DNA of 64,000 nt from a candidate division WOR-3 bacterium (GTDB taxonomy: Bacteria > SDB-A): positions 9,942 through 73,941 of the forward strand of contig JAFGON010000073.1 of NCBI GenBank assembly GCA_016926475.1, written 5' to 3'. The position numbers and the translations under genes were made by a program. Position 1 is the first letter of the stretch, and each line of letters starts with the position of its first letter. The notes beneath the pieces were generated by a model that made no database searches, was not told the origin of the DNA, and saw only the letters and a list, made by a program, of their open reading frames with translations. Positions 7,395 through 34,163 of this stretch are shown here, one piece after another.

Positions 7395-8453
7395 TCAGGT
7401 AATTAAAGTAAAATTTCTGCTCGCTAAATACTTAATAAGATTGTCTATATGGTTTTCCAATTCACTCGCCACGCCAAGATAAGCCTCGTAGTCCTTTCCA
7501 TATGGGTCCGCCACGTGTGTTTTTTTATGTGAAAACTCCGAAATGAGTTTCGTCTTGCCCTGACCTCCCGACTTCTGGACTTTTTTCTGAATTTTTGCGT
7601 CCATAGTCAATATCAGGTCAGCCTCTTCAATGTCTTTTTTGCAGATTTTTTTTGGTTTGCCGGAAATATCAACTCCGTATTTTTCCTTTATGACCCTTAA
7701 AGTTTTATCTGAATAGACAAAGCTTTTATTGTCCACCTTCAAGCCAGCCGAACTGACGTTTAATTTTATGTCTGTTTTTGTTGATTTAAGTTTTAGAATA
7801 TATTCAGCCATAGGGCTTCTGCATGTATTGCCTTCACATACAAAACATATAGACAGAGGCTCATTAGTCTGATATTTGATGTCCATCGAAGTCAGATCGC
7901 CCAGGACAAAAGGACTTATTTCACCTTTCCTCAAAACAGTCATCTTTTTGCCTGTTGTCTCTATGACAGTCGATGCAGGTTTCGCCGGAAGAGATTTGGT
8001 CTTGTTCAGAAAGTGGAATTCTTCCTTTGAGAACATGGAAGACAGATGAGATAGATCCGCTGGATTGTTTTCCCCCGAAATATTCGCCGAAGTTGCGGGC
8101 ATAATATCCAAAGCCTTGATAATATCCAAAGGAGCGGGTTTTTTGGGTACTCTAACGGCAATTTTACCGTTTTCGTCAACCAGATGTTCCGGGACCTTTT
8201 TGGAAGCTTTTCCGACAACAGTCAGTGAACCAGGCCAATACTTCTGGGTCAAACCGTAAATACGAGGGTTGAAATTGTCGAAAAGCCTGTATGCCCTGTC
8301 AATAGAATATGTCAGTATAGGTACCCTTTTGTCAGGATTTCTTTTTTTCAGTTTTAAAACTTTTTCATAAGCTTCCTTGCTTTCCGGGCTGAATGCAAAA
8401 CCCCAGACAGTGTCTGTTGGTATCAAAACAACTTTTCCGGAAAGAAACGCCAA
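7395..8453 (-). CDS. Fusion protein: L-threonylcarbamoyladenylate synthase (YrdC/TsaC domain) + low-molecular-weight phosphatase (LMW-PTP/YwlE-like)
   Basis: The N-terminal half has the YrdC-type motif (LIPTDTVWGFAF). The C-terminal half has the CX5R P-loop (VCEGNTCRSPMAE) and a DPYG motif typical of LMW-PTPs. Confidence 0.85.
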   Translation of the reverse strand: MAFLSGKVVLIPTDTVWGFAFSPESKEAYEKVLKLKKRNPDKRVPILTYSIDRAYRLFDNFNPRIYGLTQKYWPGSLTVVGKASKKVPEHLVDENGKIAVRVPKKPAPLDIIKALDIMPATSANISGENNPADLSHLSSMFSKEEFHFLNKTKSLPAKPASTVIETTGKKMTVLRKGEISPFVLGDLTSMDIKYQTNEPLSICFVCEGNTCRSPMAEYILKLKSTKTDIKLNVSSAGLKVDNKSFVYSDKTLRVIKEKYGVDISGKPKKICKKDIEEADLILTMDAKIQKKVQKSGGQGKTKLISEFSHKKTHVADPYGKDYEAYLGVASELENHIDNLIKYLASRNFTLIT

Positions 8454-8479: not shown

Positions 8480-8938
8480 TCAGTTTCGTAGAAAGCTCTC
8501 CCTGTATTCAGATAATCTTTTCTTTAAATCTTCATCGAAAAGAGCCAAAATCTCGACTGCGAGAATAGCGGCGTTTTTCGCTCCAGCATTGTCCAGGCTC
8601 ATAGTCGCGACCGGAATGCCCGAGGGCATTTGAACAGTGGAAAGAATGCTGTCAATTCCTTTGAGTGGAGACGAGCTCACAGGTACGGCTATCACAGGTA
8701 AAATACTCCAGCTAGCGACAACTCCTCCGAGATGAGCGGCGTAACCCGCTATTGTAATTATTACTTTAAAACCTCTCGATTGTGCGTTCTTAGCCAATTC
8801 CGCGGTTTTTTCTGGCGTCCTGTGCGCCGACGAGATCTCGAAAACGCTTTCTACGCCGAATGTTTTTAAAGTTTCTATGACAGTGTCAGCTATTTCACTG
8901 TCGGATTTTGAACCGGCTATCACGAGGACTTCAGTCAT
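8480..8938 (-). CDS. purE: N5-carboxyaminoimidazole ribonucleotide mutase
   Basis: 152 aa. GSKSD, SAHRTP and IAGYAAHLGGVVAS motifs. Confidence 0.9.
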   Translation of the reverse strand: MTEVLVIAGSKSDSEIADTVIETLKTFGVESVFEISSAHRTPEKTAELAKNAQSRGFKVIITIAGYAAHLGGVVASWSILPVIAVPVSSSPLKGIDSILSTVQMPSGIPVATMSLDNAGAKNAAILAVEILALFDEDLKKRLSEYRESFLRN

Positions 8939-9878
8939 TAATCACCCCCAGAAGGTCTTTAAGTTTTTCTGATTTAGGCGATTGTCTTAACTTCACAAGC
9001 GCCCTATCCTTTATCTGCCTTATCCTCTCTCTCGAAACGCCTAATTCTTGACCGATTTTTTCTAAAGAACAAGGCGTATTATCCTGAAGCCCAAAATATT
9101 TTTTCAGGACAAGTTGTTCCCTGTCTGTCAAATCTCTCATCAGTTTGTTTATCTCCTGTTCTTCAGCCTGCTTTAAATAAGACTCTTCAGGAGAGAGGTA
9201 AGAACTCTGCAAGCTGTCTTTGAAATAGGGGCTTGAAGGATCGAGCGAGATATCCTTTTGCGCGTATTGATAAGATTCTTCGATATCCCTTATGTCTACA
9301 TCGAGCATATCTGCCATTTCTTTTATCGTCATCTGAGAATGCTCAATATCCAATCCTTGTTCTCTGCTGCTCTTCAAAAGCTTTCTCAGTTTCGCCGCTC
9401 TGTTATAAGGCATATAAGCGATTTTCTGATTGGAGTATATGTACTGAAGCATTTTCTGCCTTATCCACCAAACGGCATAAGAGATGAATTTCGTACCGTA
9501 GTCAGGATCGAATCTGCTCGCCGCCTGAATCAGACCGGTGTTGCCTTCGTTGATTAAATCCATGGTGATGTTATGACTCTTGTCGAACCCCAGGGCGGTC
9601 TTCACCACAAATCTCAAATTAGCCCTTACGAGTTTGTTTATTGCTTCTATCCTCTCCGTTGGATTGCCGTATTTAATTTTTTTTCCAAGCTCTTTCTCTT
9701 CATCCCTGGAGAGCATTTTTTCTTTTTTCAAGTCTTTCTCGTACATTCCAAAAGTGTCTTCCGATATTCTTGTTGAAGCTGGAAGTTTTTTTTCTTCAAC
9801 GGGAGAAGCGGGTAAAAGATTTTGATCTTTAGCCGAAGGCAGAGCTAAAGAAGGCTTATCCCTATCTTCTTTTGCCAA
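8931..9878 (-). CDS. RNA polymerase sigma factor, sigma-70 family (RpoD/RpoS-like, short N-terminus)
   Basis: Region 2 (NLRFVV, YAVWWIRQ) and region 4 HTH (LEKIGQELGVSRERIRQIKDRAL). 8-nt overlap with purE. Confidence 0.85.
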   Translation of the reverse strand: MAKEDRDKPSLALPSAKDQNLLPASPVEEKKLPASTRISEDTFGMYEKDLKKEKMLSRDEEKELGKKIKYGNPTERIEAINKLVRANLRFVVKTALGFDKSHNITMDLINEGNTGLIQAASRFDPDYGTKFISYAVWWIRQKMLQYIYSNQKIAYMPYNRAAKLRKLLKSSREQGLDIEHSQMTIKEMADMLDVDIRDIEESYQYAQKDISLDPSSPYFKDSLQSSYLSPEESYLKQAEEQEINKLMRDLTDREQLVLKKYFGLQDNTPCSLEKIGQELGVSRERIRQIKDRALVKLRQSPKSEKLKDLLGVIND

Positions 9879-9890
9879 AACAGACCTCTT

Positions 9891-11333
9891 TCATTCATAT
9901 TCCCAAATATCGTCGCTTGAATTTGCCTCTCTGATTTTACCTTTCTCATCTACTAGAAATATATTTCTTCCTTCGATTTTCTTTGAGACAGGCATGTCGA
10001 GGATCTCGATGGAAATTTCCGGAAAGTCCTGTCCGAAAGGGCCGAAACGAGACAGTGTGGCCAGGACATCATCGGTTATTTGATCTTTTTTAGCAGAAAA
10101 ATCTATTCGGATTTTTCTGCGGAACAGTCCCCCCAAACCTGATTTTTCAAGAGCCTTGAAAAATTCGCCCACTTTCGAGCTCTCGATTTTTGCTCCGCAG
10201 GCTTTTTTGTGACCTCCAAAAGAGCTGAACAAGTTCTGTCGCTCTTCCAAAACCGACAGTACATCTCCATAAATCGTCCTTCCTTCAACTGTCTCAAAAG
10301 AATTTTCATCCAGAGCTCCGACGACGAAAGCCGGTTTGGTTTCAGAAAGGGTCAGCTTCGAGGCTATGGATCCGAGTATACCCCTGGGTGCATCTTTATC
10401 TCTAAAAACCACGAAATGTCCGATATTTTTTTTCATCGACTCCGCCTTCGAAAGAGCTGTTTCCCGCGCCTCAATCCATTTTCGGGATCTTTTCACCATG
10501 GACTCGGCGCTGGTGGTATCTGGACTGTCGGTTAAAAAGTTGAAAGAAAGAGATGATCCTTCTACTGACATATCCGATGATATTGGAGATATGATAATCC
10601 TCTTAATCTCTTCGGTGGTCTCGGGAACAGAGGATTCCTGAAACGAACACAAGAGGTCAATAGCCTGAAATCTGAATTTGTCAAGTGCTTCAATTCCTCT
10701 TTTCACGATTGTTCTGTTTTCTCCAACCAGTGGAACCCTGTCGCTGATAGTCCCGAGAGAAGCGAGCAGCCATAAATAAGGATCCTGTGAAAATTCAAGG
10801 GCAAATTTCAAAGCAAGACCGCTTCCGGAGAGATCATCGAAAAGATAATCGCTGTCATGCCTGTGACAATTCACTATTATTCTGTCTCCAAGATAAGATG
10901 CGGGGATTTGGTGATGGTCGGTGACAACGAGCTTGACCCCTTCATCGGACAGATAAGATGCTGCGACAGTATCCCTGCTGCAGCAATCTACGGTAATTAC
11001 CAGATCCGTTTTGTTTTTCTGTATTTCTCTCTTCAAAGATTCGAGGTTCATTCCGATCCCTTCGGCTTTTCTGTCCGGTATATATGCCCTGACCTTAGCC
11101 GCTGATGAAGATAGAGCAAGGTATAAAAGAGAAGCGGCTGAAATACCGTCGCAATCCTGATCCCCCCATATAAGTATCTGACCTTTGTTTTCCATGGTCT
11201 GCCTGATCACTTTCAAGGCTTTTTCAAATTGAGGAATGCCCGGGGAATCAAGCCAGATATCTTCCGTGAGAAAATTTTCTGTCAGATTCCTTTTAGAAAT
11301 CACCTTTTCGATGAACTTCTCAGCTGAAGGCAT
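9891..11333 (-). CDS. recJ: Single-stranded-DNA-specific exonuclease RecJ (short form, DHH/DHHA1)
   Basis: GDQDCDGISAASLL, YIPDRKAEGIGM, VTDHH and GGHKKACG motifs. At 480 aa it is shorter than classical RecJ. Confidence 0.8.
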   Translation of the reverse strand: MPSAEKFIEKVISKRNLTENFLTEDIWLDSPGIPQFEKALKVIRQTMENKGQILIWGDQDCDGISAASLLYLALSSSAAKVRAYIPDRKAEGIGMNLESLKREIQKNKTDLVITVDCCSRDTVAASYLSDEGVKLVVTDHHQIPASYLGDRIIVNCHRHDSDYLFDDLSGSGLALKFALEFSQDPYLWLLASLGTISDRVPLVGENRTIVKRGIEALDKFRFQAIDLLCSFQESSVPETTEEIKRIIISPISSDMSVEGSSLSFNFLTDSPDTTSAESMVKRSRKWIEARETALSKAESMKKNIGHFVVFRDKDAPRGILGSIASKLTLSETKPAFVVGALDENSFETVEGRTIYGDVLSVLEERQNLFSSFGGHKKACGAKIESSKVGEFFKALEKSGLGGLFRRKIRIDFSAKKDQITDDVLATLSRFGPFGQDFPEISIEILDMPVSKKIEGRNIFLVDEKGKIREANSSDDIWEYE

Positions 11334-12019
11334 ATCTTCCCGTTAATTTTCCCCTGAGAAACCGAAAGAAAAGAATTTTTCGCGAGTTCGAGGACAGCCA
11401 TAAAGCTGGCTATAATCCAGGGTTTGTCTTTTCTGTTGTCGAGAATTTCAGGAAATGGCACCTCTCTTGAAGGGTTTTCGAGCATGATATCTGTTATCCT
11501 GTCGATTCTATCTTCAAGAGGGATTTGATCTATTATGTATTTAAGAGACTTAATTTTTCTATACCTTTGTGTTAGTTCTCTCGCCGCGTTGATTAAAAAT
11601 ATCACATCCATGAATTTCTCTTTATCCTCTATCGCCGGTCTTGCGGCAGGTCTTATCTGAATGTGTCTCAATCCTTCATTTTCCATAGCTTTAAGTCTGC
11701 TCGCCGAGTCTCTGAAAAGCTGGTAGATAAGAAGCCTTTGAGTCAGTTCTTCTTTAGAAAGATCAGGCTCGGAAATTTCTTCGCTTCGAGGTGAAGGCAA
11801 CAAAGCTCTGGCTTTCATCCTCATCAATGTCGAAGCCATGTCGAGAAAATCGACCGCGATTTCCATGTCGAACTCTCTCATCACGTTTATATAAGCTAAG
11901 TACTCGTCTGTGATGTGAGAAATAGGTATGTCGTATATATCGAGCCGATCCCTTCTGATAAGGTATAACAAAAGTTCGAGAGGCCCTTCAAAAATTTCTA
12001 ATTTTACAGAAAATCCCAT
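11300..12019 (-). CDS. scpA: Segregation and condensation protein A
   Basis: N-terminal FEGPLELLLYLIRRDRLDIYDIPISHITDEYL is typical of ScpA. Confidence 0.85.
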   Translation of the reverse strand: MGFSVKLEIFEGPLELLLYLIRRDRLDIYDIPISHITDEYLAYINVMREFDMEIAVDFLDMASTLMRMKARALLPSPRSEEISEPDLSKEELTQRLLIYQLFRDSASRLKAMENEGLRHIQIRPAARPAIEDKEKFMDVIFLINAARELTQRYRKIKSLKYIIDQIPLEDRIDRITDIMLENPSREVPFPEILDNRKDKPWIIASFMAVLELAKNSFLSVSQGKINGKICLQLRSSSKR

Positions 12020-12056: not shown

Positions 12057-14207
12057 TCACGAAAAGATTCTTTCGGGATAACATTTATCGCAAACCGGGC
12101 ACCACCAATGCCTGCAAGGTTCGCATTTAACGAGTTTTTCGCCGCAATCCGGGCAAGTTTTGGATGTCGATTTATCAATATCAGGTTCTTTGGCATAGAT
12201 AGGTTGAACGTATTCAGAGCAGTTTTCACACCAGTATTTGTTATACTTACTTACATAAGTTGTATTGCCGCCGCATTTAGGGCAGAGAACGGCGTTTTCT
12301 TCATTTTTTGAAAGAGGCTTTTCTTCGACAATCGGTTTGGAAGGTGGAACTACTTCAATTTTCTCAAGCCCGAAATCGAGCGGCATGTATTTTTCACAGT
12401 TGTCGCACCAGTATCTTTGATATTGCTCAATAAACCTGACTTTTTTACCGCAAAACGCGCATTTCAAGCCTTCATCTTCCGTGGATACTTGCTCAACAGC
12501 CGCTTCTAAAATTTCTTCATCCTCCTCTTGAGGACTGACTATTTCTATCTCTTTGATGTTTATTGCCTCTTCAGGGGCAGTGTCTTGTTTTTTTCCAAAG
12601 CCAACCGGCATATACTCTCCACAGGTGTCACACCAATACCTGTCATATTGTTCGATGTATCTTGTATTTTTATTGCATTTAGGACAGATAAGTGCCACAC
12701 CCTCTGATTCACCGGCTCCGACCACAGAAATCTGCTCGGCTTCATCGAGGTTCTCGACTTCTTCATTTTCAAATTCTAGGTCGAGATCGGCTGTCTCAGA
12801 CCTTTTAAAATCCTCAACTCGCTGGCTTACATCCAATGCTTCCGAAGTCGCTTCTTGTTCGGAGGTAAGATTCTCACTCTCCGGCATTGGAGCCACGGTT
12901 TCCTCCTCGAGAGGAACCGAAAGTTGCTCTTCTGTCAGGGAAATAGTGCCCAGATCAACAGCCTTTTCCTTGGATTGGATAATTTCATCGGAAACTGCCG
13001 AAGCAGTCTCTTCCTCTCGTGAAACATCTGTCTTATCGGGTTCATCGCCAACGGTGACAGGAGAACCCTTGAATCCGACCGGCATATACTCTCCGCAGTT
13101 GTCGCACCAAAACCTGTCATATTGAGCAATATACCTCACTTCTTCTTTGCATTTGGGACACCTGAGAACAAGTTGCTCTTCAACGTCCGTATCATCTTCT
13201 GAGGGCGCGACAACAGTTTTTACAAAATCCTGCGTTAAATCTTTTTGAACATAGGAAACCTGTTGATCCAAATCCTGGACAACAGTCGCTGTCTCCTCTT
13301 CTACGGGTTCTTGGGCATCAATGGTATCTTCCACTCTGCCAGTTTCGATAACTTCGGCTTCCTCAACCTGATCGAAAGCCAGTTTCACAGGTTCATCGGA
13401 GGTCGGTTTTTCAATACTCTCGGGGATTATCTCTATCTTGTGTTCCAGTATTTCAGCTTTCTTTTCAGTCGAGATTTCCGATTCTAAACCAACATATTCC
13501 AGGCATTTATCGCACCAATAGCGGCCGTATTCTTCTATCCTTCTCAAAGGAGCTCCGCACTTCGGACAGTTCTTTTCCGACACTTCCGCTTTTTCTTCAG
13601 CAATTTCCTTTGAAACCGACGGGTATGATTCTTCCTTTTCAGAAGCATATTCAAGGCAGACATCGCACCACCATTTTTTATACTCGTCTATGTATCGTAA
13701 AGGGGATTTGCAAACAGGGCATGTTCTTTCTTCTGGTTTGTCAGAGGGAGTTTCTTTTAATTGCACTGATTCTGGAACCGAGACGTTTTCTTCCTCCATT
13801 TCCGAATCTGTATCACTGGAGCTTTCTACAGGTTTCCCAAAGTTGACCGGCATGAATTCTGCACACATATCACACCAGTATCTGTCGTATTCTTCGAAAT
13901 ATTGAAGTTCATAATTGCATACAGGACATTTAAGCTTGTGTTCAGTTTCCAGCGGGACAGTTATTTCTTCAACAGGGCTCTCTTCAACAGCTGTTTCTGA
14001 TATCTCTTCTATGATTTCAGACTCGGCTTCCTTGCCGAATTCCGGTTCCATATATTTTGCGCAGGTATCGCACCAATACCTATCGTAGGGTTCAATATAT
14101 CGCAGAAAACTGCCGCAATCCGGGCACTTTAGAGCTTGATCCACTTTAACTGAATCCGAACTTTTGAGGTCTTTATCATTGAAAGGTATATCGGAATCAT
14201 CGAACAT
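12057..14207 (-). CDS. Acidic repeat protein with nine CxxC-x14-CxxC zinc-ribbon units, unknown function
   Basis: 716 aa. It has nine copies of CP.C...[LV]R[YF]IE.YDRYWCD.C.EYMP separated by E/S/T/V/P-rich acidic linkers. No signal peptide or TM segment. GGAGG RBS. Confidence 0.8.
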   Translation of the reverse strand: MFDDSDIPFNDKDLKSSDSVKVDQALKCPDCGSFLRYIEPYDRYWCDTCAKYMEPEFGKEAESEIIEEISETAVEESPVEEITVPLETEHKLKCPVCNYELQYFEEYDRYWCDMCAEFMPVNFGKPVESSSDTDSEMEEENVSVPESVQLKETPSDKPEERTCPVCKSPLRYIDEYKKWWCDVCLEYASEKEESYPSVSKEIAEEKAEVSEKNCPKCGAPLRRIEEYGRYWCDKCLEYVGLESEISTEKKAEILEHKIEIIPESIEKPTSDEPVKLAFDQVEEAEVIETGRVEDTIDAQEPVEEETATVVQDLDQQVSYVQKDLTQDFVKTVVAPSEDDTDVEEQLVLRCPKCKEEVRYIAQYDRFWCDNCGEYMPVGFKGSPVTVGDEPDKTDVSREEETASAVSDEIIQSKEKAVDLGTISLTEEQLSVPLEEETVAPMPESENLTSEQEATSEALDVSQRVEDFKRSETADLDLEFENEEVENLDEAEQISVVGAGESEGVALICPKCNKNTRYIEQYDRYWCDTCGEYMPVGFGKKQDTAPEEAINIKEIEIVSPQEEDEEILEAAVEQVSTEDEGLKCAFCGKKVRFIEQYQRYWCDNCEKYMPLDFGLEKIEVVPPSKPIVEEKPLSKNEENAVLCPKCGGNTTYVSKYNKYWCENCSEYVQPIYAKEPDIDKSTSKTCPDCGEKLVKCEPCRHWWCPVCDKCYPERIFS

Positions 14208-14241
14208 CTATACCTCCGTCAAAATGACATAAACGTTTTAT

Positions 14242-30113: not shown

Positions 30114-30763
30114 TTAGAATCTCCTTTGCCCAGAGAGATTTCTCTCGTGAAATCGCTTCTTTCTTCCAAAAAGCGTCTGTCATAAGCGCTGTGATAACCT
30201 GCTTTTCCCCCGTCTTGAACTACAGGTTCGATTAAATCAATTTTTTCTATCGTGTGAAGAAACAAAATCCAGGCATAATCAAGAGTCCTTCTGTACACGT
30301 CCCTGACTTCTTCAATTCGAGGAAATATCTTGAATTTAACCATGGATATAATAGGTCCGGTGTCAATTCCCTCGTCTACCAAATGTATTGTGGCACCGTG
30401 AAATTCTTCTTCGTTTTTCAGCGCCCAATTGATAGGATTCAGACCTCTGTATTCCGGAAGCAGACCGGGATGAATGTTTATCATCTTTTCAAATCTTTCG
30501 AGAAAATCCTTCTTGAAAATCCTGTCGTAAAAAATCGAAACACCCAAATCACACTTGCCCTGGAAATCGACATCACTGTATTCACCCGATTCAACAAGGG
30601 ATATGCCGCTTAAGCGGCAGAATTCGGATAGAGATTCCGTCCATTCTGGTTCCGGAATCACGGGCACGACGCACAAAAGGTCATATAAAGAGTTTTTCCT
30701 GAAATAATCCGCGATTTTCAGAGAGAGTGAACCCTTACCGAAAAGTATTACTCTTTTTTTCAT
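30110..30763 (-). CDS. Formyltransferase-domain protein (Fmt/ArnA N-domain-like)
   Basis: 217 aa with the HPGLLPEYRGLNPINWAL motif. The start overlaps the last 29 nt of the upstream STAND gene. Confidence 0.8.
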   Translation of the reverse strand: MKKRVILFGKGSLSLKIADYFRKNSLYDLLCVVPVIPEPEWTESLSEFCRLSGISLVESGEYSDVDFQGKCDLGVSIFYDRIFKKDFLERFEKMINIHPGLLPEYRGLNPINWALKNEEEFHGATIHLVDEGIDTGPIISMVKFKIFPRIEEVRDVYRRTLDYAWILFLHTIEKIDLIEPVVQDGGKAGYHSAYDRRFLEERSDFTREISLGKGDSK

Positions 30764-33700
30764 TTTTCAGTTGTTCAATACTGCTGATTATCGTTTTTTT
30801 CAACCTCTCATCCCTATGCTTCTCTGAGGATTTAAGTGATTTTTTAAAACTTGCAATAGCTTCGGCTTTCCCACCTTTAACCCTGTAAGCTTCGCCGATG
30901 TTGAATAGAATAACTGTTTCTTCAGCTGAATTCGAAGCCAAAGCGATAGACAGAGCTTCTTTGTAAAAAGAAAGCGCTTTCTCCAAATCGCTTTCAAAAA
31001 GAGCCCCCATGGTCGTAAGTGTCCGCATTAGACCTAACTTTGCTTCGGTTTTCCTGTAAAGGTCTATCGATTCAGAGAGCAAAGCCTCTGCTTTCTCCTT
31101 TTCTCCTATCTTCATCTGTATAGACCCCATGTTGTGAAGCGAGGAAGCTTGACCCGAAAGGTCTCCTATTTTCTTTTTTATGCCATAGGATTTTTTGAAA
31201 GAAGACAGAGATTTTTTTACAAGACCTCTGTTGAGGTAGTTTATTCCGAGATTGTTGTAAACACCGGCTTGAAGTCTTTTGTTTTTCCTGAATTCTTTGA
31301 TATTTTCGCATTTGATCAAACATTTTTCGGAATTTTCATAATCCCCAACTAGATTGAAGACTGCGGACATGTTCATCAATATTTTAATCTGCCCCAAAGC
31401 CAATGAATTTTTTGTCGCTATTTCAAGGGCTTCTTCGTATTTTTCGAGAGCTTCATTTAATTTGTTTTGATTTCTGAGAATCAGGCCTTGAAGGTTTTCC
31501 ATGTCGAGAAAAGTTTCTGTCGAGGATTTTTTGTTTATGATACCTGCGCTCCTCTTTAGAGTTTTCTCCGCTTTCAAGATATCGCCCATAGCCAATTCCA
31601 CTCCAGCCTTGTTGACGAGAATTATTGAAACCAGTTCCGAATTTTTGACCTTTTTGGCTGAGGCAAGTGCATTTTTAAGAGCTTTCAAAGCATGCGATTT
31701 TTCACCTTTCATTTCGAGTATCTTGGATAATTGAAGAGTCGTATGGGAGTACTGCTCTTCGTTCGATTTTTTTCTGTGAAACACCGCGATCTCCGAAAAA
31801 ATCTTTTTTGCCTCCTCAAGGGCGTATTTCTCGACGAGGTTTTCAGCGTGCACTTTAGCCCAATAAAGCCATTTATCCGTCAAACCGCACCTTTTAGCCT
31901 GCTCGTATATTCTCGCCGTTTCCGTTTCACGGTTCGCTTCCATTGCGGCAAGAGCTTTCCTGTGAAGCTCTTTGCGTTCTGATGGCATCAAGAGGTTGTA
32001 AGCAGCTTCTTGAAGCAGATTATGTGAAAAAGACAGGTAGTTGCCACCTTTTTCAACGAAGACATTTTTATCAATAGCTTCAATCAAATATTGATCTAAA
32101 TCCTGACTTTTCAACCCATCGAGTTTTTCGAGTATTCTTTTAAAAAAAGCATACCCCAGGACAGATGCTGTTTTTACTGTTTCTTTCGTGTAATTCTCGA
32201 GAGAGTCTATTCGCGAAGTCAAAACGCCGTAGATGGTCCTCGGGAGTTTTGTCTGTGGGATTTCCTTCTCTTTTACGTTTTCTTTCAATGAAATTGCAAG
32301 CTGTTCCGCGAAAAAAGGATTGCCCTGGGATTTTTGTATTAACGTTTTTGCAATCTCGGATTTTCCATACAAGCCATAGTGCCCGATTATCGTCTCAATA
32401 ATTTTTTTATTAAGCGATTTTAGGTCTATCTCCGCGTATTTGTTTTTGCATATCAAGTCCTTGACCCAATCAACTTTTCTCGAAACGAGAATTATGCCGA
32501 TTTTCATGTCTTTTTTAGCGCGGATGATTTTCTCGATGAATTTTCTCGACAATTCGTCTATAAACTGAAAATCATCGACAACCACTACGGCTTTTTTACC
32601 GGAAGATTTTTCTTCTATCAATCTTGTAAGGCAATAGATCTGTATCTGAAGCCTCCCAGCTTCATCGGTCTGTTCGTATAAGCTGTTGGAAATTTTATAT
32701 CCGCACATCGAAGCTATGAAGCTCGAATAAGGATTCAAATCTAAAAAATTTCCCTGAAGCTTGTTTTGTATGTCTTTGATTAAGCTCTTTCTTTTATCAT
32801 CGGTGATCCCCATGAACTCTTTAAGCCAAGGTTTAAAAGGATTCCAGGGTTCGCTAACAGTGCCATCGCATTTAAGTCTCGTGACATCATATCCAGCATC
32901 AAGGCTTTTCAAAAATTCTTCTACGAGTCTTGTCTTTCCGATACCTACTTCTCCGGTAATGAAAATCGGATTTTTCCCGTCTTTTCCCAAAACCGTTTCC
33001 AGTGATTTTGAAAGCTCGGATATGTCTTTTTTTCTTCCGGTAAACGGAGTGTGGTACCTTTGGTTCGAGAGCTTTTTCAATTCTCTTAGTGAAAACAACT
33101 TTTGAGGTCCTTTTTTCCCCTTCAGTGACTCAGTTTTCTTCAAGTCAAAAACAGCTATGTCAGTTGAGAAATTAACTAAATTAACAGACACAAGAACTTC
33201 TCCCTTGTCCGCGGTTGACATTATTCGAGCGGCTGTATTGACAGAGTCTCCAATCACCGTCCATTCGTTCCTGAAAACACAGCCTGTCAAACCAGCGTAA
33301 GCGAGCCCGTAATCGACTCCGATTTTGGCTTCAGGAAATTTCGATATCATCTCGATGCAAAATTTTAGGGAAAGCAGGTCGGCGTTCTCACGGGCTTTTG
33401 GAGCGCCGAAAACAACAAGGGCAGTAAGACCTTTGTCGTTGTACTCAATTTTGTTGAAATAGCCCCAATATTTTTTTGATAGTTCAAAACAGACTTTTGA
33501 AGCTATGTCGATTGACTTGTGTGAAGAGTCTTCTCCAAACTTCACAAAAACCGTCACAATCATCCTGATTTCGGATCTGAGAGAAGCAGCGAATATTTCC
33601 TCGGGGAAAAAATGTTTTTGAACTGTTTCAAGTTGTGTTCCATGATCTTCAAAAGTCAACATCTTTTGCGAATTTGAGCAATTTCCGATGGAGGGATTTT

Positions 33701-34163
33701 CGGCGGCAAAAGCTTTTCTCACCGCTTCACCGGAAAAATAATAAAATGATCTTTCAGCGTTTCCTGTTATCCCCCATTTTATTTCACCGTTAGAAAAACC
33801 GTATTTGAGAGTGAGCCCTCTGGCCGGACCGTTTTGAAATATCTTAGGCATTTTCTCAACAGTTTTACAAACAGACCTTCCTTTGTCCCCCGGAAATATT
33901 GCGAGAAAAGCATCTCCCGCGAATCCTGATACAAACCCGCCGTTTTCATACACAGCTCTCAGGGGCATGTCGAAAGCCGAGAATAATATACGGGAAATTT
34001 TTTCTGCTCCGGTGTCGGCCTTCTTGAAAAGGTTTTCAGTTTTACAAGTGAATCCGGAAACATCTACGAAAAGAGCCGAACCCCTGAATGATCCTTTTTT
34101 TTCATTCCGAACCTTTTTTCTAAAAATAAAATCCGGTATAAATGCGAGTATTTTTTCTTCCAT
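30735..34163 (-). CDS. Tandem class-III nucleotide cyclase domains + AAA/STAND ATPase + TPR array
   Basis: 1142 aa. Two cyclase-homology domains (FVDVSGFT/GDAFLAIF, then GDSVNTAARIMS). Walker A ITGEVGIGKTRLVEEF, then GNPFFAEQL, then a long C-terminal TPR region. Confidence 0.85.
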   Translation of the reverse strand: MEEKILAFIPDFIFRKKVRNEKKGSFRGSALFVDVSGFTCKTENLFKKADTGAEKISRILFSAFDMPLRAVYENGGFVSGFAGDAFLAIFPGDKGRSVCKTVEKMPKIFQNGPARGLTLKYGFSNGEIKWGITGNAERSFYYFSGEAVRKAFAAENPSIGNCSNSQKMLTFEDHGTQLETVQKHFFPEEIFAASLRSEIRMIVTVFVKFGEDSSHKSIDIASKVCFELSKKYWGYFNKIEYNDKGLTALVVFGAPKARENADLLSLKFCIEMISKFPEAKIGVDYGLAYAGLTGCVFRNEWTVIGDSVNTAARIMSTADKGEVLVSVNLVNFSTDIAVFDLKKTESLKGKKGPQKLFSLRELKKLSNQRYHTPFTGRKKDISELSKSLETVLGKDGKNPIFITGEVGIGKTRLVEEFLKSLDAGYDVTRLKCDGTVSEPWNPFKPWLKEFMGITDDKRKSLIKDIQNKLQGNFLDLNPYSSFIASMCGYKISNSLYEQTDEAGRLQIQIYCLTRLIEEKSSGKKAVVVVDDFQFIDELSRKFIEKIIRAKKDMKIGIILVSRKVDWVKDLICKNKYAEIDLKSLNKKIIETIIGHYGLYGKSEIAKTLIQKSQGNPFFAEQLAISLKENVKEKEIPQTKLPRTIYGVLTSRIDSLENYTKETVKTASVLGYAFFKRILEKLDGLKSQDLDQYLIEAIDKNVFVEKGGNYLSFSHNLLQEAAYNLLMPSERKELHRKALAAMEANRETETARIYEQAKRCGLTDKWLYWAKVHAENLVEKYALEEAKKIFSEIAVFHRKKSNEEQYSHTTLQLSKILEMKGEKSHALKALKNALASAKKVKNSELVSIILVNKAGVELAMGDILKAEKTLKRSAGIINKKSSTETFLDMENLQGLILRNQNKLNEALEKYEEALEIATKNSLALGQIKILMNMSAVFNLVGDYENSEKCLIKCENIKEFRKNKRLQAGVYNNLGINYLNRGLVKKSLSSFKKSYGIKKKIGDLSGQASSLHNMGSIQMKIGEKEKAEALLSESIDLYRKTEAKLGLMRTLTTMGALFESDLEKALSFYKEALSIALASNSAEETVILFNIGEAYRVKGGKAEAIASFKKSLKSSEKHRDERLKKTIISSIEQLKNEKKSNTFR

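Follow-up and report, generated by a model that had tools for sequence, protein, structure and literature searches.

The window, a stretch of 64,000 nucleotides (nt) from a candidate division WOR-3 bacterium (contig JAFGON010000073.1 of assembly GCA_016926475.1, positions 9,942 to 73,941), carries on its minus strand a gene for an acidic protein of 716 amino acids (aa) with nine zinc-ribbon units, situated ahead of scpA. An entry identical to this protein was present in the protein collection (P0001). The gene and its units are arranged as follows:

12057..14207, minus strand: gene for the 716-aa nine-ribbon acidic protein, stop codon included (ATG-started open reading frame, nine units, AlphaFold2 full-length model)
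14025..14138, minus strand: unit 1, aa 24-61, cysteines 28/31/46/49 (AlphaFold2 strands at 34-38, 43-46 and 51-53)
13827..13940, minus strand: unit 2, aa 90-127 (motif, alignment, AlphaFold2)
13620..13733, minus strand: unit 3, aa 159-196, with a divergent tail EYASEKEE (motif, alignment, AlphaFold2)
13467..13580, minus strand: unit 4, aa 210-247, best match to the eS31 ribbon among the units (motif, PDB sequence match, AlphaFold2)
13059..13172, minus strand: unit 5, aa 346-383 (motif, alignment, AlphaFold2)
12585..12698, minus strand: unit 6, aa 504-541, nearest to the consensus and modelled alone
12360..12473, minus strand: unit 7, aa 579-616 (motif, alignment, AlphaFold2)
12183..12296, minus strand: unit 8, aa 638-675 (motif, alignment, AlphaFold2)
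12060..12167, minus strand: unit 9, aa 681-716, with seven cysteines, the C-terminal cap (motif, orthologue alignment)

The nine zinc-ribbon units

The motif C-x2-C-x14-C-x2-C matched nine times in the protein, the units starting with their first cysteine at residues 28, 94, 163, 214, 350, 508, 583, 642 and 685, and the distance from the first to the last cysteine was always 22 aa. An independent profile search likewise returned nine stretches. When the residues of the protein were shuffled 20,000 times, 19,891 shuffles were without a match, 107 had one and two had two; since none reached three, nine units are far above chance, and the nine copies described in an earlier note on this DNA stand. 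Both CxxC knuckles, thus the four metal ligands of a zinc ribbon, are present in every unit, and the four cysteines were invariant across 50 units of six proteins. The aromatic-Trp-Cys junction ([YFW]-W-C), which the earlier note had called invariant, occurs in nine of nine units. The conserved core given there is a fair consensus for units 1, 2, 5, 6 and 7, which fit it best, but units 3, 4 and 8 diverge more. Besides the ligands, R9, Y10, Y14, R16, Y17 and W18, and also Y25 and P27, are conserved positions of the unit. On the DNA level the units of the window gene are 60-79 % identical to each other, units 5 and 6 reaching 79 %. One structural Zn2+ is presumably bound per ribbon.

The ninth unit (CPDCGEKLVKCEPCRHWWCPVCDKCY) has three additional cysteines, seven in total, arranged as C-x2-C-x6-C-x2-C-x4-C-x2-C-x2-C. 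All three of these extra residues, pointed out early on, recur in four of the five orthologues that were compared, and orthologue L004 retains one; the ninth unit could bind a second metal.

Linkers, charge and localisation

Between the last cysteine of one unit and the first of the next lie 21-136 aa. The linkers had been characterized as consisting almost only of Glu, Asp, Ser, Thr, Val and Pro; this was overstated, as these residues make up 64 %, but the acidity is real: the linkers hold 127 Asp and Glu residues and a net charge of -97 over 410 aa, and the ribbon units have a net charge of +2 over 306 aa. The whole protein (isoelectric point (pI) 4.27) contains 172 Asp and Glu against 77 Lys and Arg residues, a net charge of about -95, together with 39 cysteines and only three histidines. 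No transmembrane segment was found, the Kyte-Doolittle mean over 19 residues peaking at 0.98, the acidic N-terminus reads unlike a signal peptide, and Pfam and NCBIfam searches gave no enzymatic domain, in agreement with the first description. The protein is predicted to be soluble and cytoplasmic.

Two short motifs were located outside the ribbons:

14181..14195, minus strand: N-terminal motif S-D-I-P-F, aa 5-9, invariant in four orthologues
12711..12788, minus strand: linker motif DLDL..E.E.V..LD..E.ISVV.AG, aa 474-499, preceding unit 6 (orthologue alignment; low-confidence helices at 455-490)

The N-terminal motif reads MFDDSDIPF in the window protein and ESDIPF in the orthologues P0002, P0003 and L001, and is replaced by EDVPI in L003. 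It resembles DDDIPF, the C-terminal docking tip of the Escherichia coli protein SSB (PMC3553982), a likeness between two short sequences that we regard as a lead only.

Predicted structure

A single-unit AlphaFold2 model, built for unit 6 with 28 aligned units, gave a small beta structure with a predicted local distance difference test (pLDDT) value of 86.8. In the full-length model nine independent ribbons appear with pLDDT values of 75-88, and the linkers stay below 50 except at residues 455-490, where two helices are weakly predicted. Since the ribbons are modelled as folded and the linkers as disordered, the label of beads on an acidic string, coined in the earlier note, is apt. Each modelled ribbon consists of three short strands, one behind the first knuckle, one ahead of the second knuckle and one within the trailing E-Y-M segment (unit residues 8-12, 17-20 and 25-27, pLDDT 75-93), which corresponds to the three-stranded antiparallel sheet that the two hairpins of a zinc ribbon form. 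A Foldseek comparison of the unit with the PDB yielded exclusively zinc ribbons as top matches (RPA70, Trm112-like, the C-ribbon of TFIIS/Rpb9, TFIIB and NudC), with query-normalised TM-scores mostly of 0.5-0.7 and no match at E<=0.001.

Orthologues and evolution of the array

In a word-indexed search for homologues, the full protein gave only P0002 (47 % identity), P0003 (45 %) and one distant protein; its acidic linkers may have swamped the word index. The same kind of search gave one match for the 40-aa unit profile and two for the nine concatenated ribbons. A scan of one genome per species (185,579 species) yielded orthologous loci in four genomes; further orthologues lie on metagenome contigs. 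The DNA pattern for Y-D-R-Y-W-C-D-x-C recovered the same four loci and one more, L023, which was a chance match in another reading frame. The orthologues are restricted to a small WOR-3-type clade. Members of the orthologue cluster are labelled 'candidate division WOR-3 bacterium'. L002, L003 and L004 are fully syntenic with WOR-3-labelled contigs, yet their records bear the names 'Desulfuromonas sp. SDB' or 'uncultured Desulfuromonadaceae'; the labels of these metagenome-assembled genomes (MAGs), either the Desulfuromonas-type or the WOR-3 one, look inconsistent.

All orthologous loci share one gene order: dapH, divergently oriented, then the ribbon gene, scpA, the RecJ-family DHH/DHHA1 gene, a sigma-70 gene, purE and a Sua5/low-molecular-weight-phosphatase gene. 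ScpA of these loci is 46-76 % identical to that of the window. Compared unit by unit with P0002 and P0003, the ribbons of the window protein are 50-82 % identical to their counterparts (the diagonal) and 17-63 % to the other units; the sole exception is unit 4 against P0003, for which unit 3 scored slightly better (58 vs 55). The linker sequences diverge, while their lengths are kept among close relatives (27/44/47/29/114/136/53/37/21 vs 26/44/51/31/124/121/56/35/21). Conservation of the ribbons extends to the more distant orthologues L003 and L004, the former with a tenth, N-terminal one. A recent tandem duplication or an assembly artefact was rejected on the grounds of the DNA identities among the units and of the conservation of the array unit by unit across species, which both indicate that the array is old. 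As the ribbons are one-to-one orthologous across species, each bead appears to be under its own purifying selection; judged from the alignments, it is the beads, not the string, that selection maintains.

The unit in other proteins

We built a 38-column profile from 28 units and ran it on 1.84 billion cluster representatives (clusters of 50 % identity). It matched 1,396 of them at E<=1e-3; the number fell to 238 at a limit of E<=1e-10 and to 65 at E<=1e-30. The best-scoring proteins bear 3-10 units each. The family-wide signature reads CPxCG-x2-[LVI]-x-[YFW]-[IV]-x2-Y-x-R-[YWFH]-[YW]-C-x2-C-x2-Y-x-P. Where a unit-bearing relative could be assigned to a taxon, this was Thermoplasmata, Methanomassiliicoccales or a 'Methanobacteriota' MAG; one more relative has archaeal genes around it, among them S17e and Kae1-Bud32. 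On the strength of these matches the ribbon unit itself is not lineage-specific, whereas the nine-bead acidic orthologues are.

The relatives include soluble proteins of 5-8 ribbons and proteins with ribbons on either side of a SAP motif followed by a hydrophobic C-terminal region. Ribbon arrays also occur C-terminally on Ser/Thr kinases and on an MMPL/RND transporter, or behind VWA, TPR and reprolysin-like domains. The linkers of the archaeal relatives are Pro/Ala/Glu-rich (PAPE-rich) or Lys-rich, not purely acidic. Linker chemistry thus varies by lineage, and acidity is therefore seen as a lineage trait and the ribbon as the common functional element. Many units of P0018, P0022 and P0025-P0030 have a degenerate second knuckle (for example W-Y-C-Y-A-E-G-K-Y-A-P-K) and three cysteines, the remaining signature being kept. 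In P0004, a metagenomic protein of 743 aa, four units and a SAP motif are joined to a C-terminal region of about 300 aa of a different kind, which might be a fusion or an artefact of gene calling or assembly.

Neither ScpA nor RecJ nor the sigma factor of the window string was found at any of nine archaeal unit-bearing loci within up to 6 kb per side, less on short contigs; the gene contexts of P0014, P0017 and P0025 stem from very short contigs. A locus search gave no loci related to P0012. Co-occurrence of the YDRYWCD unit with scpA, a question raised in the earlier note, thus holds as adjacency in all orthologous loci but not in the nine archaeal ones.

Gene neighbourhood

Expression signals and the co-directional genes downstream were located at the following positions:

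14290-14261, minus strand: promoter-like TTGACA-18-TATATT, 11 of 12 positions matching (sigma-70 consensus match only)
14213..14217, minus strand: ribosome-binding site GGAGG, 5 nt upstream of the ATG (consensus match only)
11300..12019, minus strand: scpA (Pfam SMC_ScpA 96 bits, NCBIfam, conserved adjacency)
9891..11333, minus strand: RecJ-family DHH/DHHA1 nuclease gene (Pfam and NCBIfam; TIGR00644 253 bits, cut-off 396.9)
8931..9878, minus strand: sigma-70 family factor gene (Pfam and NCBIfam)

The arrangement agrees with what had been read from the DNA before: the gene has its own promoter and ribosome-binding site, both as consensus matches, its stop codon is separated from the scpA start by 37 nt, Pfam and NCBIfam confirm all three neighbours, and no ScpB was detected among the window genes tested. 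The same holds for SMC. An open reading frame of 1142 aa (30735-34163, minus strand) was ruled out as SMC on the basis of its Pfam matches (partial adenylate/guanylate cyclase, AAA_16 and TPR) and is a STAND-like signalling ATPase. A terminator-like hairpin was absent from the coding strand between the nine-ribbon gene and scpA, and scpA is probably co-transcribed with the upstream gene; the nine-ribbon gene would probably head the scpA, RecJ-family and sigma string, transcribed from a promoter of its own. The RecJ-family gene shares 34 nt with the end of scpA, an overlap suggestive of translational coupling. Its product is short for the RecJ family (480 aa) and scored under the TIGR00644 cut-off.

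Further downstream, 7395-8453 on the minus strand encodes a Sua5/YciO/YrdC domain fused to a low-molecular-weight phosphotyrosine phosphatase domain, a fusion kept in related loci. Antisense within the nine-ribbon gene lies an open reading frame of 190 aa (12553-13125, plus strand), Ser-rich as the mirror of the Glu-rich coding strand and most likely a shadow reading frame.

Comparison with known families

The Pfam copy used was without PF26788 (DUF8260), to which the orthologues P0002 and P0003 have a 'faint' precomputed match. Searches of the literature for DUF8260, and for WOR-3 together with 'zinc ribbon', found nothing. With the whole protein, Zn_ribbon_6 (PF07191) reached 56.9 bits from eight stretches and DZR 31.6 bits, and Trm112p was also matched. 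The Zn_ribbon_6, DZR (PF12773) and DZR_2 (PF18912) families share the pairs of four-cysteine knuckles, have whole-protein scores above gathering and are frequent across the relatives. The whole-protein scores of Zn_ribbon_6 and DZR add up several incomplete knuckle alignments. None of these models covers the YDRYWC core, and the two-ribbon model fits only the close-set units 8-9 (best Zn_ribbon_6 stretch: residues 641-708 on model positions 2-57 of 67). A single unit scored 19.6 bits with zf_UBZ and 17.1 with Zn_ribbon_6 (cut-off 25) and reached no gathering score, so that the Pfam copy used holds no model for it; a scan of 61 single units scattered weakly across 49 zinc-ribbon families. The matches to Trm112p, DNA_ligase_ZBD, HypA and Zn_ribbon_19 were rejected as knuckle-only or as junction artefacts of the repeated CxxC. 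All NCBIfam matches of the whole protein were below their cut-offs.

The nearest named relative appears to be eS31/S27a (S27ae, PF01599). The spacing C-x2-C-x14-C-x2-C and the CPxCG first knuckle are shared, and a run of Y/F-D-R-x-aromatic-C precedes the second knuckle, as seen in the alignment of the window unit CPKCGAPLRRIEEYGRYWCDKC with 4bts_A9. Searched by sequence against the PDB, the protein and the unit profile alike had eS31 as their top match, with E of about 1e-3 to 4e-3 (4bts_A9 at about 1e-3; 4v5o_A9 also aligned). PF01599 was matched by 14 of 61 single units and by 22 of 131 relatives, which places it among the most frequent matches there. The window protein, at 12.8 bits and E 0.11, missed the gathering threshold of 22.3, which the archaeal relatives P0012 (31.8 bits) and P0025 (26.2 bits) exceeded. 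Several features set the two apart: nine copies in an acidic, disordered chain of 716 aa as against a single copy with a basic extension or a ubiquitin fusion (about 50 aa stand-alone), a trailing E-Y-M-P-x-x-F-G segment that is the nine-ribbon family's own, and a bacterial origin, eS31 not being known from bacteria. By these alignments the unit resembles, and perhaps descends from, the eS31 ribbon, which falls short of membership. The suggestion that the units belong to no named zinc-ribbon family thus held insofar as no single unit reached a Pfam gathering score; the resemblance in spacing and motif to eS31 and the wide archaeal spread are to be added.

Thermoplasmata multi-ribbon proteins, either with two ribbons, a SAP motif, two to three ribbons and a hydrophobic tail, or soluble with 5-7 ribbons, belong to the same unit family (CPxCG..L.YI..Y.R.YC..C..YAPK) and share the multiple copies and the low-complexity linkers; all of them are uncharacterised. 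They usually have Y-C-Y in place of W-C-D and Pro/Ala/Glu- or Lys-rich in place of acidic linkers, and they differ further in the additional SAP and hydrophobic C-terminal segments, in some degenerate second knuckles (CYAEGKY) and in the lack of linkage to scpA. In the RanBP2/NZF arrays of Nup153 and Nup358, small four-cysteine ribbons with a conserved Trp are separated by disordered spacers and serve as multivalent binding beads. The likeness to the nine-ribbon protein is one of architecture only: these eukaryotic units read W-x-C-x2-C-x10-C-x2-C, whereas all nine window units have a 14-residue spacer, and no RanBP2-type family was matched among the listed Pfam matches or in the other sequence searches.

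A defence-system or phage origin was rejected, PADLOC giving only HEC-08 (31 bits) and PHROGs only weak matches (E 4e-5 or worse). The HEC-08 match aligns aa 160-239 (units 3-4) with the end of the model (positions 243-321 of 358) and suggests that this candidate defence protein may end in a similar ribbon pair. The nine-bead protein is a distinct, uncharacterised zinc-ribbon subfamily in an unusual acidic architecture.

Possible function

We tentatively favour the view of the nine-ribbon protein as a Zn-stabilised multivalent interaction scaffold, although with somewhat less than even confidence. As docking beads, the ribbons would contact a partner protein, one another, or some target that is repeated or polymeric, and avidity would arise from the sum of many weak bead contacts. 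The linkers would be flexible spacers keeping the beads independent, and in the WOR-3-type lineage their acidity may repel nucleic acid or attract basic proteins. The reuse of the bead on kinases, on a transporter tail and on VWA, TPR and SAP proteins fits a portable interaction module, not an enzyme. Confidence is limited because the conserved residues Y14, R16, the aromatic residues 17/18, Y25 and P27 may be purely structural in such a tiny domain, in which case their conservation would be no proof of an interaction surface. The same scaffold interpretation is weakened by a functionally mixed gene string (purE, Sua5) that gives no direction from context, and by the breadth of 'interaction scaffold' as a class, which is at risk of unfalsifiable vagueness.

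The best of the alternatives, which we nevertheless consider improbable, is that the ribbons bind single-stranded DNA or RNA, either like eS31 or by RanBP2-type stacking of aromatic residues on bases; the acidic linkers would be polyanions acting by autoinhibition or competition. The nearest relative by sequence is a ribbon that contacts rRNA, aromatic and Arg residues of the unit (R9, Y10, Y14, R16, Y17, W18) are conserved, the SAP DNA-binding motif stands alongside the unit in archaeal relatives, and the neighbouring genes handle DNA. The strongly negative net charge of the protein makes direct binding of nucleic acids look unlikely, though the ribbons, which are only neutral, may still bind them; moreover, the similarity to eS31 is marginal (E about 1e-3, 12.8 bits against 22.3) and Foldseek gave no significant specific match.

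Still less probable is a metal store, buffer or redox protein, in which nine to ten four-cysteine sites, holding Zn or, rubredoxin-like, Fe, would sequester or deliver metal together with the carboxylate linkers in an anaerobe. The 39 cysteines would suffice for nine or ten tetrahedral sites, CPxCG knuckles are found in rubredoxins, the linkers are rich in Asp and Glu, and there is a weak NCBIfam match to a rubredoxin-like/rubrerythrin-like archaeal domain (NF033497). This match, at 27.4 bits, is below its cut-off of 32, and a store would need neither the conservation of non-ligand positions nor the one-to-one orthology of the units. The same unit is attached to kinases and transporters, and metal-homeostasis genes are absent nearby.

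A lineage-specific accessory role in chromosome maintenance has an equally small chance in our estimation. The SSB-tip-like SDIPF would dock the co-encoded RecJ-family nuclease or other SSB clients, and/or the ribbons would bind ScpA-SMC in replacement of a neighbouring ScpB. The unvarying order of ribbon gene, scpA and RecJ-family gene in all orthologous loci, the short terminator-free gap to scpA, the invariance of SDIPF in four orthologues, its resemblance to the SSB tip and a gene string without ScpB speak for this role. Yet the synteny extends to purE, Sua5 and dapH within a narrow clade and is not independent evidence. Recognition of the SSB tip relies on a free C-terminal carboxylate, which the N-terminal SDIPF lacks; a motif of five residues may be a coincidence, and L003 has EDVPI in its place. 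As the string is one of mixed housekeeping genes and the linkage is absent from the nine archaeal unit-bearing loci, adjacency to scpA tells little about function, and the functional tie to condensin that the earlier note had considered was not supported. A bolder combination, in which the ribbon of about 35 aa (CPxCG-x9-Y-x-R-aromatic-aromatic-C-x2-C-x2-Y-x-P) is an unrecognised and widespread prokaryotic family of multivalent docking domains, possibly eS31-derived, and the WOR-3 protein a chromosome-maintenance hub recruiting the RecJ-family protein and/or ScpA-SMC by SDIPF and ribbons, is likewise a long shot. A zinc-binding anti-sigma factor was set aside, the gene not being adjacent to the sigma gene and the protein having only three histidines and no H-x3-C-x2-C.

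Implications

Few unannotated pieces of prokaryotic proteomes are as common as small zinc ribbons. The ribbon unit forms a coherent and easily spotted family (1,396 or more clusters at 50 % identity) that recurs in multiple copies and in varied fusions, and its definition would improve the annotation of Thermoplasmata and WOR-3 genomes. With nine individually conserved beads at the head of an scpA/RecJ string, the WOR-3 protein is a clean candidate for biochemistry. If the beads are indeed docking modules, the scaffold would represent a prokaryotic case of 'folded stickers on disordered spacers', comparable to eukaryotic nucleoporins and condensate scaffolds.

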